NCBI GenBank assembly: GCA_963834905.1
Contig: CAWIDR010000006.1
Location: 1,388-65,387 of the forward strand
DNA length: 64,000 bases
Source: an uncultured Thermoleophilia bacterium
Lineage (GTDB): Bacteria > Actinomycetota > Thermoleophilia > UBA2241
Direction of reading: 5' to 3'
Shown here piece after piece: positions 52,085 to 64,000 of the stretch. The translations under genes and the position numbers were made by a program. The notes beneath the pieces were generated by a model. It saw nothing but the letters and a program-made list of their open reading frames with translations, did not search any database and was not told the DNA's origin. Numbering within the stretch: the first letter of the stretch is position 1; each line of letters starts with the position of its first letter.

Positions 52085-53734
52085 TCAGGCGGGAGCCGGC
52101 TTGCCCTTCTTGGACTGGTCGATGAGCTCCTTGGCCTTGAGGGCCAGCCAGAACTCCATGCGGTCCTGCGACTGGTTGAGGTCGCGGCCGGTGATCTCCT
52201 CGACGCGCTTCATGCGGTACCGCAGCGTGTGGCGGTGCACGTACAGCTTCTCGGCGGCGTCGCCCCAGTGGCCGTTGGCCTCGAGGAAGCAGGCGAGGCT
52301 CTTGACCAGGTCGCTCGAGTTCTGCTCGTCGTAGTCCTGGAGCTTGCCGAGCACGCTGTCGTAGAACACCTCGAGCGACAGCGTGTCCTGCAGGCCGAGC
52401 AGCAGCCCGTAGGAGCCGAGGTCGTCGAAGCTGGCGATGACCCGGGGCTCGCCCTTGAGCTTGCGGATCTTGATGGCGTAGCTCGCCTCGTAGTAGCTCT
52501 GGCGGAGGTCGATGAGCTGGCGGTGCGGCCGGCCGATGCCGACGGAGACGGAGATCTCCGGCAGCATCTCGGCGATCACGGCCTGAAGCTCGCCGGCGAG
52601 CCGGATGATCTCCTTGGTGTCCATCTTGCCGGGCTGCACCAGGACGACGACGGAGTCGCTGCGCGACGCGCTGATGCCGAGCAGGTCGTGTCGCGCCATG
52701 AACTCGTCGACGGTCCAGTGCAGGCGCTCCTTGACGTCCTGGGCGGCGGCCTCGCCGCGTTCCGCCGCCTCTTCTCCCTCCTGCACGTCGATGTCGACGA
52801 GCACGATGAGGTGCGGCGACTGCGGCTCCAGCCCGAAGAACGCGAGCCGCCGGGCGATCTCCTCCTCGTAGAGGTCGCTGGCGATGAGCTCGTCGAAGAA
52901 GTCGCCGGCGAGGCGCTTCTCGGTCTCGGCCACGGCCTTCTTCTTGACCAGCTCCAGCGCCGTCACGGTGACGACGTTGTGGAGGATGATGCGGTCGTAC
53001 TCGCTGAAGTCGCCGCTGTCCTTGACGACGGCGAGGAACGCGCCGATGCGGTGCGACGCGACCACCGGGTAGACCTGCACGCCCGAACCCACGCCCTCCA
53101 TGCTGAGGGCGAAGTTCTGGCGGTCGGCGCGGCGGTCGCCGATCATGCGCCACAGGTCGGCGATGAGCTCGGCGCCCAGGTGACGGCGGTACGCCGCCTC
53201 GCAGAGCACCACGCCGTGGAAGTCGAAGAGCACGGCGGAGCAGCCGACGAGGGCCGAGAGCGTGGAGAGGATCGCCTCGAGGCCCTTCTCCTCCAGCACG
53301 ATCTTGGTGAGCTTCTCGTGCACGGCGAGGCTGCGCTGCAGCAGCGAGTACTGCTCGTTGACGATCTTGGAGGCCACGGCCTCGGTGATGGCGAGGAACG
53401 GCACGTGGTACGGCACCTCGAACAGCGGGAAGCCGTACTCCTCGGCCACCGCGACGATCGCCGGCGGGACCTTGTCGAAGCTGAAGCCGGTGCCGAAGCC
53501 GAGGCCGGAGATGTTGTGGTCGATGAGGCGCTTGATCTGCGCGACCTGCTGCTCCTCGTCGCCGACGAAGCTGTAGCCGGTGGTGAGCAGCAGCTCGCCG
53601 CCCTTGAGCCACTTGGTGGGGTCGGGGACCTCGGTGATGTGGACCCACCGCACCGGGTTGCTCGTGGACTTGTGCCCGGCCAGCAGGCGCAGGTTGAGCT
53701 CGGGGATCTCAAGGATGTCCTGTACGGTGATCAT
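52085..53734 (-). CDS. PucR/CdaR-family transcriptional regulator
   Basis: ATG at 53734. MITVQDILEIPELNLRLLAGHKSTSNPVRWVHITEVPDPTKWLKGGELLLTTG (PucR N-domain). The C-terminal HTH is LVKSLACFLEANGHWGDAAEKLYVHRHTLRYRMKRVEEITG. Intact 549 aa. Confidence 0.85.
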   Translation of the reverse strand: MITVQDILEIPELNLRLLAGHKSTSNPVRWVHITEVPDPTKWLKGGELLLTTGYSFVGDEEQQVAQIKRLIDHNISGLGFGTGFSFDKVPPAIVAVAEEYGFPLFEVPYHVPFLAITEAVASKIVNEQYSLLQRSLAVHEKLTKIVLEEKGLEAILSTLSALVGCSAVLFDFHGVVLCEAAYRRHLGAELIADLWRMIGDRRADRQNFALSMEGVGSGVQVYPVVASHRIGAFLAVVKDSGDFSEYDRIILHNVVTVTALELVKKKAVAETEKRLAGDFFDELIASDLYEEEIARRLAFFGLEPQSPHLIVLVDIDVQEGEEAAERGEAAAQDVKERLHWTVDEFMARHDLLGISASRSDSVVVLVQPGKMDTKEIIRLAGELQAVIAEMLPEISVSVGIGRPHRQLIDLRQSYYEASYAIKIRKLKGEPRVIASFDDLGSYGLLLGLQDTLSLEVFYDSVLGKLQDYDEQNSSDLVKSLACFLEANGHWGDAAEKLYVHRHTLRYRMKRVEEITGRDLNQSQDRMEFWLALKAKELIDQSKKGKPAPA

Positions 53735-53741
53735 CGCCGGG

Positions 53742-53747
53742 ATTCTA
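53742..53747 (-). promoter_or_regulatory. -10 box TAGAAT placed 7 nt before the pucR-like ATG (leaderless transcript candidate)
   Basis: The minus strand reads gtgTAGAATcccggcgATG, with no Shine-Dalgarno between. Confidence 0.35.
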
Positions 53748-61092: not shown

Positions 61093-62139
61093 TCACACCC
61101 CCCTCTTCGCGTGGACGCAGCGCACGAAGTGCCCGCGCTCGACCTCGGTGAGGCCGGGGTGCTCCGTCTTGCAGCTCTCGATCCTCACGTCGCAGCGCGG
61201 CTCGAAGGCGCAGCCCGCCGGCGGGTTGATGAGGTTGGGCGGGTCGCCCTTGATGGAGCTGACCATCTCGCGCTTCTCGTGGATGTTCGGGAAGGCCTTG
61301 ATGAGCTGGCGCGTGTACGGGTGCGTCGCGTTGTTGAAGATGTCGGCCGTGGTGCCGCTCTCGACCACCTCGCCGGCGTACATGACGACGCCCTTGTCGC
61401 AGGTCTCGGCCATGACCGAGAGGTCGTGGCTGATGAGGATGAACGAGAGGTCGAGCTCCTTGCGCAGGCGCCCGATGAGCTCGAGGATCTGCGCCTGCAC
61501 CATGACGTCGAGCGCCGTGGTGGGCTCGTCGCCGATGACCAGCTTGGGGTTGCACGCCAGCGCCATGGCGATCATGGCGCGCTGGCGCATGCCGCCCGAG
61601 AGCTGGTGCGGGAAGTCCATCACCCGCTTGGGGTTGATGCCGACCAGGTCGAACAGCTCGCGCGCCCGCACCATGGCCTGCTTCTCGCTGAGGCCCTCGT
61701 GCAACTGGATGGGCTCGGCGATCTGCTTGCCGGTCTCCTTGACCGGGTTCAGCGCGTTCATCGCCCCCTGGAAGATGATGCTGATCTCCTTCCAGCGGAT
61801 CTTGCTCATGCCGAACTCGGTGCGCTTGGCGAGGTTCTTGCCGTCGAAGAGGATCTCGCCGCTGACGATGCGGCCGTTCTCCGGCAGGAGCTTGAGCAGG
61901 GAGAGGGCCGCGGTCGTCTTGCCGCAGCCGGACTCCCCGGCGAGGCCGAGGCTCTCGCCGGGCTGGAGGACGAAGGAGACGTCCTGCACGGCCTTGACGT
62001 CGCCGACGCCGAGCTTGAAGTAGGTGGTCAGGCTGCGCACATCGAGCAGTCCTTCGTGCTCGATGCGCTCGACGGTCTTCTTCTCGCCCGTGGGCTTGCC
62101 TTTGGCCTTGCCCTTGGGCTTGGGGGCGGTCGTTGCCAT
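61093..62139 (-). CDS. Oligopeptide/dipeptide ABC transporter ATPase (OppD/DppD-like) with Lys-rich N-terminal tail
   Basis: Intact 348 aa: [44 protein letters not shown]...GCAFEPRC. Confidence 0.85.
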
Positions 62140-63681
62140 CAGTCCTCCCCCTTCTCGTCGTCGGCTATGTGGCCGCCGACCCAGCCGCCGCCCTCGGGAC
62201 GGTTGATGGTGCCGCCGGCCGGCTTGTCGAAGTCGGGCATGGCGTCGTCGGTCTGCTGGCCGGGCGTGAAGATGCCCGCGCTGCCGCCCATGCCGGCGCC
62301 GCCGGCCACGGCGATGGCCGGCTCACCGCGAGCCGTGAACCGGCTCTCGGTGCTGCTGTCCTCGCGCTTGCGGAGCTTGGGATCGAGCACTTCGTCGTAC
62401 GCCGTGCCGATGAAGGTGAAGGCGAGCACGACGAGGATGATGGCGATGCCCGGAGGCAGCAGGTACCACCACGCCGGCAGGCCGGCCGCGCCGTTCACCC
62501 AGGCGTAGTGGAGCATGGTGCCCCAGCTGAAGTTGAGCGGGTCGCCAAGGCCGAGGAACGAGAGCGTCGTCTCCGAGAGGATGGCGATGGCCACGACGAG
62601 CACGAGGTTGGCGAAGATGAGCGGCATCACGTTGGGCAGCACGTGCTTGGTCATGATGTGGCGGTTGCTCGGAGCCGATCGCCTTGGCGCGCTCGATGAA
62701 GCTCAGCTCGCGCACGCGCAGCACGTCCGAACGGACGACGCGCGCGGTGCCCGGCCAGCTGGTGATGCCGATGATGAGGATGATCATCCAGTAGTTCTGA
62801 CCCCAGGCGGCGGCGAGCACCATCGCCAGCGGCAGCCACGGGATGACCAGGAACGCGTCTGTTAAGCGCATCCAGCCTTCGCCTTGCCAGCCCCCGTAGA
62901 AGCCGGCGGCGATGCCGATGCCGGCGCCGAGGACGGTGGACATGAAGGCGGCCAGGAGGCCGACCATGAGCGAGATGCGCGCGCTCCAGATGAACTGGGC
63001 GAGCACGCTCTGCCCCACCTGATCGGTACCGAACCAGTTGTAGTAGGACAGGGTCGGCGGGTGATACGGGCCGTAGAGCTCGCCCGTGGCCGGGTCCTTG
63101 ATCTGCGCGTTGGGATCGAGCAGTGCGTGGTCGGCCAGGAACGGGGCCAGGAGCGCCATGACCATGAAGACGACGAGGATGCCGAGGCCGACCATGCCCT
63201 GCCAATTGGCGCGGTACAGCTTCCACACCTGATGCGTGTTCCAGGTGGTGAGCTCCGCGCGCTCGGGGTTGCCCGCGGCCCAGAACCAGACACTGGCGCC
63301 GCCAAGGACGACGGCCACCGTCTGCAGGGCCCAGTTGTAGGAGATCGCGTTGACGCTGCCCGACCAGCCTCCAGCTCCACTGGCGCCGGCAAGGTAGCCC
63401 CAGACGAAGAACACGACGGCTTCCGCGACGAGGAGCAGATTCATGACCTTGGCCTTGGACCTGCGAAGGAGCCCGATCGCCCCGCCGAGGAGACAGAGGA
63501 GGCCGACCAGGATCAGCGCCCACGCCGGGTAGGCGCCGACACTTGCGGAGAAGAAGCCCTTGATCACCTCGGAAAGGCCGCTGGAGAGGGGCACTGTCTT
63601 CGGATACGTGAGCAGCTCGAGGACGACCCAGACGATGATCGTCCAGAAGATGACCCAGTTCCGGAAGCGACGGGGGATCAT
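62139..63681 (-). CDS. ABC transporter permease (OppC/DppC-like) with a long N-terminal multi-TM extension and hydrophilic C-terminal tail; one frame change near 62665
   Basis: The N-terminal ~200 aa contain several hydrophobic helices. The permease core follows: WFGTDQVGQSVLAQFIWSARISLMVGLLAAF...GITSWPGTARVVRSDVLRVRELSFIERAKAIGS | ...HIMTKHVLPNVMPLIFANLVLVVAIAILSETTLSFLGLG. A Gly/Asp-rich tail of about 80 aa closes the protein. Confidence 0.8.
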
Positions 63682-64000
63682 GCCTGCACCCTTGGGTCGA
63701 GGTAGTAGTACATGATGTCGGCGATGAGGTTGGCGACGATCACGGCGATGCTGGCGATGAGGAACACCAACTGCATGACCGGGTAGTCGCGCTTCTGCAT
63801 CGAGTCGAAGGACAACAGCCCGAGTCCGGGCCAGTTGAACACGGCCTCCGCGAGGATCGCACCCGACATCACGAAGCCGAGGTTCATCATCACGATGGTC
63901 ACCGTCGGCAGCATCGCGTTGGGCACCACGTGGCGCCAGAGGACGGCGTTCTCGCTGAGGCCCTTGGCGCGAGCCGTGAGCGCGAAGTCCTCCTTCATGA
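63678..64000 (-). CDS. ABC transporter permease (OppB/DppB-like), 3' part only (gene continues beyond right edge)
   Basis: ...EDFALTARAKGLSENAVLWRHVVPNAMLPTVTIVMMNLGFVMSGAILAEAVFNWPGLGLL...IADIMYYYLDPRVQA*. The stop overlaps the next permease start. Confidence 0.8.
   Translation of the reverse strand, partial: MKEDFALTARAKGLSENAVLWRHVVPNAMLPTVTIVMMNLGFVMSGAILAEAVFNWPGLGLLSFDSMQKRDYPVMQLVFLIASIAVIVANLIADIMYYYLDPRVQA

Follow-up and report, generated by a model that had tools for sequence, protein, structure and literature searches.

The window analysed here is a 64,000-nt stretch of DNA with about 70% G+C (contig CAWIDR010000006.1, positions 1,388-65,387 of the forward strand, assembly GCA_963834905.1) from an uncultured Thermoleophilia bacterium (UBA2241). 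Between positions 52085 and 64000, Pfam profile matches identify a string of nine co-directional minus-strand genes, which encode an importer of the Opp/Dpp type, a protein of the MttB methyltransferase superfamily, two putative hydrolases and a PucR-type regulator (Table 1). We find that the MttB protein, which lacks pyrrolysine (Pyl), differs at the predicted substrate pocket from its characterised relatives, that the gene order around it recurs in many Thermoleophilia genomes, and that the string rather likely belongs to a corrinoid-dependent methyl-transfer pathway.

Table 1. Genes and spacer elements of the string, listed from the end of the window inwards.
Feature	Coordinates	Strand	Evidence
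oppB, ABC permease, C-terminal 106 aa only (cut by window end)	63678..64000	-	BPD_transp_1 E 4e-28, profile 80-182 of 184
oppC, ABC permease, long N-terminal extension, frame broken at ~62672	62139..63681	-	OppC_N and BPD_transp_1, matching as far as the shift
oppD, ABC ATPase, oligo_HPY tail	61093..62139	-	ABC_tran E 1.5e-26, oligo_HPY E 1e-19
oppF, ABC ATPase, oligo_HPY tail	60053..61090	-	ABC_tran E 4.6e-31, oligo_HPY E 3e-21
GC-rich hairpin in the oppF-SBP spacer	59994..60045	-	folding, and conservation in L001
Solute-binding protein (SBP), family 5 (peptide/nickel/opine type), signal peptide, C-terminal hydrophobic anchor	58057..59965	-	SBP_bac_5 E 2e-81
MttB-superfamily protein, non-Pyl, "D-type", 491 aa, intact, predicted first methyltransferase (MT1)	56585..58060	-	PF06253 E 5e-64
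C45-family Ntn (autoproteolytic) acyltransferase/hydrolase, 367 aa, intact	55472..56575	-	PF03417 E 7e-15
D-aminoacylase-type amidohydrolase (N-acyl-D-amino-acid / L-Xaa-D-Xaa hydrolase family), three frames	53821..55475	-	Amidohydro_3, N-terminal part only in one frame
TAGAAT -10-like box preceded by TG	53742..53747	-	direct reading; 7 nt upstream of the PucR ATG
PucR/CdaR-family regulator, 549 aa, intact	52085..53734	-	PucR E 5e-37, GGDEF_2 E 3e-17, HTH_30 E 5e-22

The gene string and its junctions

By protein families the importer is complete, with one family-5 SBP, two permeases and two ATPases with oligo_HPY tails, oppC and the SBP gene being frameshifted. Among solved structures the SBP matches generic peptide, nickel and oligosaccharide binders alone (E 1e-31), from which its ligand is not inferable. 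The C45 protein scores 184 bits against NF040521 (cut-off 85) and matches the isopenicillin-N acyltransferase structure 2x1d with E 2e-9; its predicted nucleophile, Cys118, is invariant in 41 sequences, and it is predicted to be autoprocessed. For the D-aminoacylase we rely on the intact 549-aa protein of a relative, which matches 1m7j (E 9e-72) and 3gip (E 3e-69) and is about 65 aa longer than the solved enzymes; the D stereochemistry is assigned by similarity to them. The frame pieces of the window's own gene include the HxH metal motif in the form DPHTHSD. The regulator has a PucR N-domain, a GGDEF-like domain and a C-terminal HTH_30 domain.

Most of the genes are tightly packed. The oppB/oppC junction is an ATGA overlap, the oppC/oppD junction a 1-nt overlap (TGATG), and the oppD stop is followed after 2 nt by the ATG of oppF. 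The SBP and mttB genes overlap by 4 nt (ATGA), 9 nt separate mttB from the C45 gene, and the C45 and D-aminoacylase genes overlap in GTGA. An initial annotation of this DNA had listed the same genes in the same order, and Pfam finds all of them in those places, but the annotation overlooked frameshifts in three of them. Its 86-nt gap after the D-aminoacylase gene and its PucR-type regulator are both recovered; its 10-nt gap between mttB and the C45 gene measures 9 nt. Its description of the junctions as overlapping or very short holds for most, but not for the oppF-SBP spacer, which is 87 nt long and includes a GC-rich hairpin of about 23 bp with no U-tract. Folding of the 97-nt segment gives a minimum free energy of -67.2 kcal/mol (z = -7.3), and none of 200 shuffles is as stable. 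The hairpin is also found in L001, one of the two close relatives that we aligned to the cluster (L001 at 96% nucleotide identity, L002 at 88%). It may act in processing, stabilisation or attenuation and thereby divide the string into two units of expression, and it could set unequal expression of the translocator genes and of the part from the SBP gene to the D-aminoacylase gene. An AAGGAG lies 7-8 nt 5' of the SBP start codon (59965).

In the spacer between the D-aminoacylase and PucR genes, the TAGAAT box is identical in L001 and L002, and the remainder varies. Because this conserved TG-n-TAGAAT box is so close to the ATG, the PucR gene probably has its own, nearly leaderless transcript. 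A consensus scan finds no full sigma-70 match, and the promoter and terminator scans give nothing above shuffled background. At the oppD/oppF junction (61093-61110), a 51-nt in-frame deletion relative to L002 leaves OppD without 17 C-terminal residues.

Reading frames and sequence quality

Five coding frameshift events fall in three of the nine genes within 12 kb. Compared with L001 and L002, oppC has an extra C at about 62672, after which the protein continues in another frame; the SBP gene has frame breaks at about 59909, 58172 (+1 nt) and 58119 (-4 nt); and the D-aminoacylase gene has 1-nt insertions at about 54874 and 54240 that spread it over three frames. All breaks are window-specific 1-nt insertions with the exception of one 4-nt deletion. 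L002 has no indels. As true gene models we adopt the intact versions found in the relatives, in which OppC has 513 aa, the SBP 620 aa and the D-aminoacylase 549 aa.

So many events in so few genes could mean that the frameshifts are real and that the cluster is being lost in this strain, which we consider improbable. The frame-shifted segments retain high G+C at third codon positions (GC3) and full similarity to the proteins of the relatives, L001 carries different indels of its own, and housekeeping genes of the window are affected too. The essential lysyl-tRNA synthetase gene lysS (region 31600-32160) is frameshifted at about 31770, and nadB (nadB-nadC, 34549-37421), modB and modC (14525-16584) and molybdoenzyme genes (2435-4464 and 7389-9987) are fragmentary. 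The closest relatives are "MFD" metagenome-assembled genomes (MAGs), and the MFD (Microflora Danica) MAGs were obtained from Danish soils and sediments by sequencing with Nanopore alone (PMC12313526). Given the window-specific insertions, the splitting of lysS and other genes, and the Nanopore-only relatives, the frameshifts are most likely long-read assembly errors and not gene decay, and the whole window looks like an error-prone long-read assembly. The insertions at 62672 and 54874 share the heptamer CCGAGCA (TCCGAGCAAC and GCCGAGCACC), which may reflect a systematic base-calling error at a sequence motif, possibly a methylation motif, or may be coincidence.

The MttB protein and its predicted pocket

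The mttB gene is free of in-frame stops, and its product matches the PF06253 profile over positions 31-499 of 500. Against the Pyl-type equivalog TIGR02369 it scores 241 bits, where the cut-off is 525. Among solved structures, MtgB (2qne, 9yce) and Pyl-MttB (7xcl) match it about equally, with E 1e-41 and at best about 146 bits. We pair residues of the window protein with those of MtgB and Pyl-MttB from HMMER alignments, and take the roles of the residues from the literature (PMC9842639, PMC13080624). Pyl334 of MttB pairs with Cys318, which is a Cys in 77% of the clade, and there is no amber codon. Met249 of MttB pairs with Cys233, and Tyr364 of MttB and His348 of MtgB both pair with Ser348. 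On the MtgB side, Tyr97 pairs with position 96 (always Leu or Met in 182 clade sequences), Phe356 with Gly356, and Arg312 with Asp313, invariant in the 182 sequences. All four glycine-betaine-binding residues of MtgB are replaced, namely both cation-pi aromatics (Y97 and F356), R312 and H348. In the same 182 sequences H94, N95, C233, D313 and Y315 are invariant, and C312, C314, S348, G356 and E362 are conserved at 98-99%.

The arginine is reported to be conserved in all members of known function, in which it binds the acidic group of the substrate (PMC13080624); following that work, we use a conserved Arg at the position of MtgB R312 as the test for the characterised quaternary-amine type. With the carboxylate-binding Arg turned into an invariant Asp and the aromatic cage gone, the predicted substrate is neither glycine betaine nor a known acidic quaternary amine. 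The Asp at the pocket base suggests a substrate whose far end carries a positive charge or none, instead of an acidic group. The initial annotation had assigned the protein to the non-Pyl type, as the uninterrupted open reading frame (ORF) and the pairing of Pyl334 with a Cys bear out. It had also considered that the protein might cluster tightly with a characterised betaine methyltransferase; the alike scores to MtgB and MttB and the four replaced residues point the other way.

The signature reaches beyond the window's own clade. A search of 1.8 billion cluster representatives returns 6264 MttB-superfamily members. The clade of the window accounts for only some six full-length clusters (at 50% identity) that score above 460 bits, after which there is a gap. 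At 25-36% identity, many of the representatives that rank next have H94, C233, D313, Y315, S348, G356 and E362; MtgB-like representatives have R, H and F/Y at the corresponding sites. We name the group with the Asp313 signature "D-type". It includes a paralogue from Ca. Formimonas warabiya and no characterised enzyme, and judged by these residues the signature marks a large uncharacterised subfamily.

The active-site region of the clade is rich in cysteines, unlike MtgB, MttB and 4yyc: C233 is invariant, C312 and C314 are conserved at 99%, and positions 318 and 360 are mostly Cys. We considered a zinc site of Cys233, Cys312 and Cys314 (with Cys318) like that of MtaB or MetE; Cys312 and Cys314 sit in a beta-strand on either side of a pocket residue, and they may face away from the pocket. 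An AlphaFold2 model made from a 12-sequence clade alignment has a mean pLDDT of 51, and we do not use it.

Conservation of the string and the genes beyond the window

Metagenomes hold hundreds of relatives of the MttB protein, of which the best 120 are 70-100% identical to it and the named ones come from Thermoleophilia or Actinomycetota MAGs. Our conservation survey takes one genome per GTDB species and comprises 68 loci, 56 from Actinomycetota and 12 from Chloroflexota. The Actinomycetota loci come mostly from Thermoleophilia MAGs from soil, peat, lake sediment and digesters. Their gene order is [aldehyde dehydrogenase]-MeTr-S58-oppBCDF-SBP-mttB-C45-D-aminoacylase-PucR, followed by a short-chain dehydrogenase/reductase gene, a class-A beta-lactamase-like gene, alanine dehydrogenase and an aldehyde ferredoxin oxidoreductase. 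Counting only Actinomycetota loci with sufficient flank, MeTr lies upstream of oppB in 38/40, S58 is present in 39/42, OppF in 47/49, C45 in 49/52, the D-aminoacylase in 41/48 and PucR in 43/46. PucR is the best-conserved protein of the string, with 83-97% identity in loci of the Thermoleophilia type; the three loci that diverge most have 75-76%. The order is kept in about 45 species-representative Thermoleophilia MAGs. The initial annotation had asked whether the order was conserved in any relative; it is, and well beyond chance.

MeTr and S58 are known only from the relatives. MeTr is a 267-aa Pterin_bind protein that scores 287 bits against NF005719 (methyltetrahydrofolate:corrinoid methyltransferase, cut-off 259) and matches the second-methyltransferase (MT2)/MeTr structures 4o0q, 2yci and 2e7f with E 1e-42 to 1e-44. 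In L002 the MeTr gene stops 4 nt before the S58 gene, whose product is similar to D-aminopeptidases (2drh, E 1e-92), DmpA and BapA (E 1e-92 to 1e-68). By analogy with L001, MeTr should lie about 2-3 kb past position 64000 in the window's own contig, beyond the remainder of oppB, an expected gap of about 320 nt and the S58 gene. Because MeTr stands upstream of oppB in the relatives, and by analogy just past the end of the window, the second methyltransferase would belong to the cluster. The mttB gene had been called an orphan, and a corrinoid protein and a second methyltransferase had both been noted as absent from the window. As to the corrinoid protein this holds, with no B12-binding domain found in the window by Pfam or by six-frame search; as to the second methyltransferase, relatives have it just beyond the end. 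The word orphan is thus too strong, the corrinoid protein alone being missing locally, and the appearance is largely due to where the window ends.

Several loci depart from the common order. The minimal variant L041 has Aldedh-MeTr-SBP-MttB-PucR alone. L017 (11536-15832) and L021 have an extra module between the D-aminoacylase and PucR genes, composed of a second family-5 SBP (40% identical), an ornithine-cyclodeaminase (OCD)/mu-crystallin protein, and a second D-type MttB (54-55% identical). In the divergent Thermoleophilia loci L057 and L060, a lone family-5 SBP lies directly upstream of mttB. In the comparison over loci L003-L070, close relatives with 84-96% identity in MttB, OppB/D/F and PucR reach just 58-68% in the SBP, which in 16 loci is absent from the position before mttB or relocated; its low conservation may reflect diversifying ligand specificity.

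D-type proteins in other lineages

A metagenome scan with a 5-sequence alignment of D-type MttB proteins as query yields 80 loci. Among them is a group of low-GC loci (L085-L111, 42-46% G+C) with the motif H-[PA]-C-D-Y-S-G-E, which combine OppBCDF (OppD/F 47-56% identical to those of the window), a D-aminoacylase homologue of about 550 aa (mostly 46-55% identical) and a D-type MttB. In the 13 low-GC loci of at least 10 kb, the amidase lies within 6 kb in 8, Opp genes in 7, and a corrinoid protein gene divergent from mttB in 5. Locus L090 (1-17383) has OppCDF, BKACE, a saccharopine-dehydrogenase-like protein, an MtrH-type MT2, a corrinoid protein, a D-type MttB, an OCD, a RACo activase, a second MttB paralogue, a D-aminoacylase and an M20 peptidase. 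Locus L103 (1-17389) has the core of L090 without nearby corrinoid genes, together with two radical-SAM genes and a class-III aminotransferase. A Desulfobacteraceae MAG (L072) has the order MttB(D-type)-SBP_5-OppB-OppC-OppDF-peptidase, and Ca. Formimonas warabiya has MttB(D-type)-amidohydrolase-SSF transporter.

Since the combination of D-type MttB, Opp importer and D-aminoacylase recurs in organisms of very different base composition, we read it as a functional link and not as mere inherited order. The neighbours of the low-GC proteins also argue that D-type proteins may work in classical corrinoid systems. The suggestion made initially, an imported N-methylated compound that contains amide bonds, gains support from this recurrence in unrelated lineages.

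Proposed pathway and alternatives

We consider it rather likely that the window encodes part of a corrinoid-dependent three-component methyltransferase pathway, namely its importer, MT1, hydrolases and regulator, and that the Thermoleophilia bacterium is anaerobic. In this pathway, SBP and OppBCDF would import a peptide-like or N-acyl-amino-acid-like compound with an N-methyl group. The S58 D-aminopeptidase, whose gene would lie just past the window end, would cleave amide bonds together with the C45 Ntn-hydrolase and the D-aminoacylase, before and/or after demethylation, so that they would either yield the true methyl donor or process the demethylated product. The MttB protein would methylate the Co(I) of a corrinoid protein whose gene lies elsewhere in the genome, the MeTr-type MT2 would hand the methyl group to tetrahydrofolate, and the PucR-family regulator would control expression. 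Methyl transfer, corrinoid dependence in this organism, whether hydrolysis or demethylation comes first, and what kind of compound the substrate is are all inferred. Speculatively, the OCD, saccharopine-dehydrogenase and BKACE genes of the related modules hint at lysine- or ornithine-type skeletons. The initial annotation knew of no described pathway with this gene set, and our literature search likewise found no paper on it or on Thermoleophilia MttB clusters.

A number of observations weigh against this pathway. We searched for corrinoid proteins with phmmer in six-frame ORFs of the window and of 70 clade loci (68 distinct, each with ±10 kb of flank), using as query the B12-binding region of E. 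coli MetH, and found none; nor did we find an activase in the window or within ±10 kb of the 70 loci. Pfam finds no B12-binding domain in the ORFs of the cluster or in 40 further ORFs from the remainder of the window (1-52 kb). The local absence is real, since the same query finds 45 corrinoid proteins in 82 comparison loci, at E 1e-22 to 1e-33 except for one truncated fragment at 4e-08, and Pfam confirms one of the 45 with B12-binding and B12-binding_2 domains. The corrinoid partner is therefore assumed, not seen, over the window and ±10 kb. An Rfam search of the cluster and of three relatives finds no riboswitch, for cobalamin or otherwise. MeTr is seen in relatives only, as the window stops inside oppB. 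The 12 Chloroflexota orthologues (62-68% identical) have no partner genes of the cluster nearby: in the three loci that we examined, one adjoins an Opp-type ABC operon and one a major facilitator superfamily (MFS) transporter, the genes being otherwise unrelated. The synteny within Thermoleophilia may in part be inherited gene order rather than functional linkage. The pocket geometry comes from sequence alignment only, and with both cation-pi residues and the Arg lost, the substrate may not even be a quaternary amine. As for the missing corrinoid gene, in Eubacterium limosum the MtyB and MtcB genes have only a transporter and a regulator beside them, with MtqC, MtqA and RamQ shared and encoded elsewhere (PMC8604678), and by that analogy its local lack would not be unusual.

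The best surviving alternative, still unlikely, is an operon for the salvage of D-amino acids or peptides, for instance cell-wall peptides, in which the MttB-fold protein transfers no methyl group and may be a catalytically different TIM-barrel enzyme or a passenger that inherited gene order has kept in place. The hydrolases are coherent for peptides with D-residues (by the S58 match to 2drh and the D-aminoacylase match to 1m7j), a class-A beta-lactamase-like gene and alanine dehydrogenase lie nearby, the canonical substrate-binding residues are lost, and no corrinoid protein is local. Yet MeTr accompanies the cluster and stays by SBP-MttB in L041, where all hydrolases are lost; in L090 a D-type MttB lies between a corrinoid protein, an MT2 and RACo; and the MttB ORF is intact and 62-98% identical over the approximately 120 listed clusters (at 90% identity) and the 56 species-representative loci. 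A second alternative, for which we see a slim chance, is that the MttB protein is an ordinary methyltransferase for glycine betaine (or proline betaine, carnitine or butyrobetaine) like MtgB, MtpB, MtcB or MtyB, with unrelated neighbours. The shared superfamily, the MT2 gene in the cluster of the relatives, and the JGI and NCBI labels of the relatives as trimethylamine methyltransferase family proteins would fit this. Against it, Y97, R312, H348 and F356 of MtgB have become L/M96, D313, S348 and G356, fixed or nearly so in the 182 sequences, and the Arg is reportedly kept in all characterised members (PMC13080624). Moreover, the SBP gene overlaps the MttB gene by 4 nt and the importer is of the peptide/opine type (SBP_bac_5). 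Betaine uptake has dedicated systems, other than this type. Finally, we know of no MttB or MeTr enzyme that works in vivo without a protein-bound corrinoid, which counts against the least probable alternative, that D-type MttB and the MeTr-like protein (or free cobamide) methylate tetrahydrofolate directly. The joint conservation of MT1 and MT2 in Thermoleophilia loci that all lack a corrinoid protein within ±10 kb, and the methylation of free cob(I)alamin by MtgB in vitro (PMC13080624), would be expected of such a variant, but other D-type members have a classical corrinoid protein and an activase as neighbours, and remote corrinoid genes are normal in E. limosum (PMC8604678).

Returning to the corrinoid-dependent pathway, we put forward a broader and tentative proposal, which we hold to be possible but doubtful: that D-type MttB proteins are corrinoid-dependent demethylases for a new class of substrates, methylated amines, cationic or neutral, that are imported as peptides or N-acyl amino acids or are set free from them (such as methylated lysine or ornithine derivatives, or N-methylated or D-residue peptides). 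With the D-aminoacylase and the Opp importer, they would form an unrecognised route by which anaerobic bacteria of soil and sediment, from several phyla, supply their folate pool with methyl groups bound in peptides. In at least two lineages that are unrelated, D-type genes occur beside importers of the peptide type and amidases like D-aminoacylase; importers also accompany one in the Desulfobacteraceae MAG, and an unrelated amidohydrolase in a Firmicute. If the proposal is true, a large share of non-Pyl mttB genes is mis-assigned in metagenome surveys that count each of them as quaternary amine demethylation, and the abundant uncultured Thermoleophilia that live in anoxic soils, peat and lake sediments use a hitherto unrecognised methylated compound as a C1 source. 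Actinobacteriota are among the most actively methylotrophic bacteria of an Arctic mire, where they express corrinoid-type mtxB genes (PMC10805028). The conserved SBP-MT1 pair would then offer an experimental handle, as the SBP ligand should be the substrate or its precursor.

Other features of the window

A Moco/tungsten riboswitch (RF01055, 56.6 bits, gathering score 36) lies at 13462-13623 (+), upstream of a modA-modB-modC-mobB string. Several molybdopterin oxidoreductase genes are found at 2435-9987 and 18098-19954, one of them with a pyrogallol-hydroxytransferase-like (AhtL) N-domain, and each group adjoins an IclR-type regulator and a 4Fe-4S protein. Their products may be anaerobic enzymes for aromatic compounds or for hydroxylation. 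A Pfam-identified housekeeping string tilS-hpt-ftsH-folE-folP-folB-folK (37352-43817, -) has an order typical of Actinobacteria; its folP product is a separate and unrelated Pterin_bind protein (dihydropteroate synthase), distinct from the MeTr-like MT2. The window has a single tRNA gene, at 45178-45251 (-) (RF00005, 65.5 bits).

Comparison with known systems

Taken together, the window protein is a clear MttB-superfamily member that would work like those of the MT1/corrinoid protein/MT2 systems, and by its residues it fails the tests for both the Pyl type and the characterised quaternary-amine type. From Pyl-MttB-MttC (7xcl, 7xcn), with which it shares fold, family and a similar score (E 1e-41 to 1e-51), it differs at three positions, Pyl334 to Cys318, Tyr364 to Ser348 and Met249 to Cys233. 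With the MtgB-MtgC-MtgA system of Desulfitobacterium hafniense (2qne, 9yce), it shares the MttB TIM-barrel family in a full-length alignment (E 1e-41 to 2e-50) and the non-Pyl character, and the cluster, as seen in the relatives of the window, shares a MeTr-type methyl-corrinoid:tetrahydrofolate MT2. Unlike that system, the window has the four betaine residues replaced, no adjacent corrinoid protein and a peptide-type importer, and three amide hydrolase genes are interleaved with the methyltransferase genes of the cluster.

For the layout first called orphan, the best model, by analogy, is the E. limosum set of MtpB, MtcB and MtyB, where MT1 is encoded with its own transporter and regulator and the corrinoid protein and activase are common and elsewhere (PMC8604678). 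Those enzymes differ from the window in their acidic quaternary amine substrates, a retained Arg, an MFS transporter and the lack of hydrolases, and the window type differs from them in having MT2 clustered with MT1. For the hydrolases, the nearest likeness is to the phosphocholine system MthB-MthK of E. limosum, in which an accessory enzyme adjoining the MttB member converts the imported compound to the true methyl donor (PMC12155760); the hydrolases of the window could play the part of MthK. There the accessory enzyme is a kinase and not an amidase, MthC and MthA are adjacent, and the substrate is acidic. The clusters most like the window are the low-GC and L072 D-type clusters, which share with it the H94, C233, D313, Y315, S348, G356, E362 signature and the OppBCDF partner, and, in the low-GC loci, the long D-aminoacylase homologue (~550 aa). 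They differ in that their MttB proteins are only about 27-32% identical to that of the window, that several low-GC loci have a corrinoid protein, an MtrH-type MT2 and RACo next door, and that BKACE, a saccharopine-dehydrogenase-like protein, OCD and an M20 peptidase stand in place of C45 and S58.

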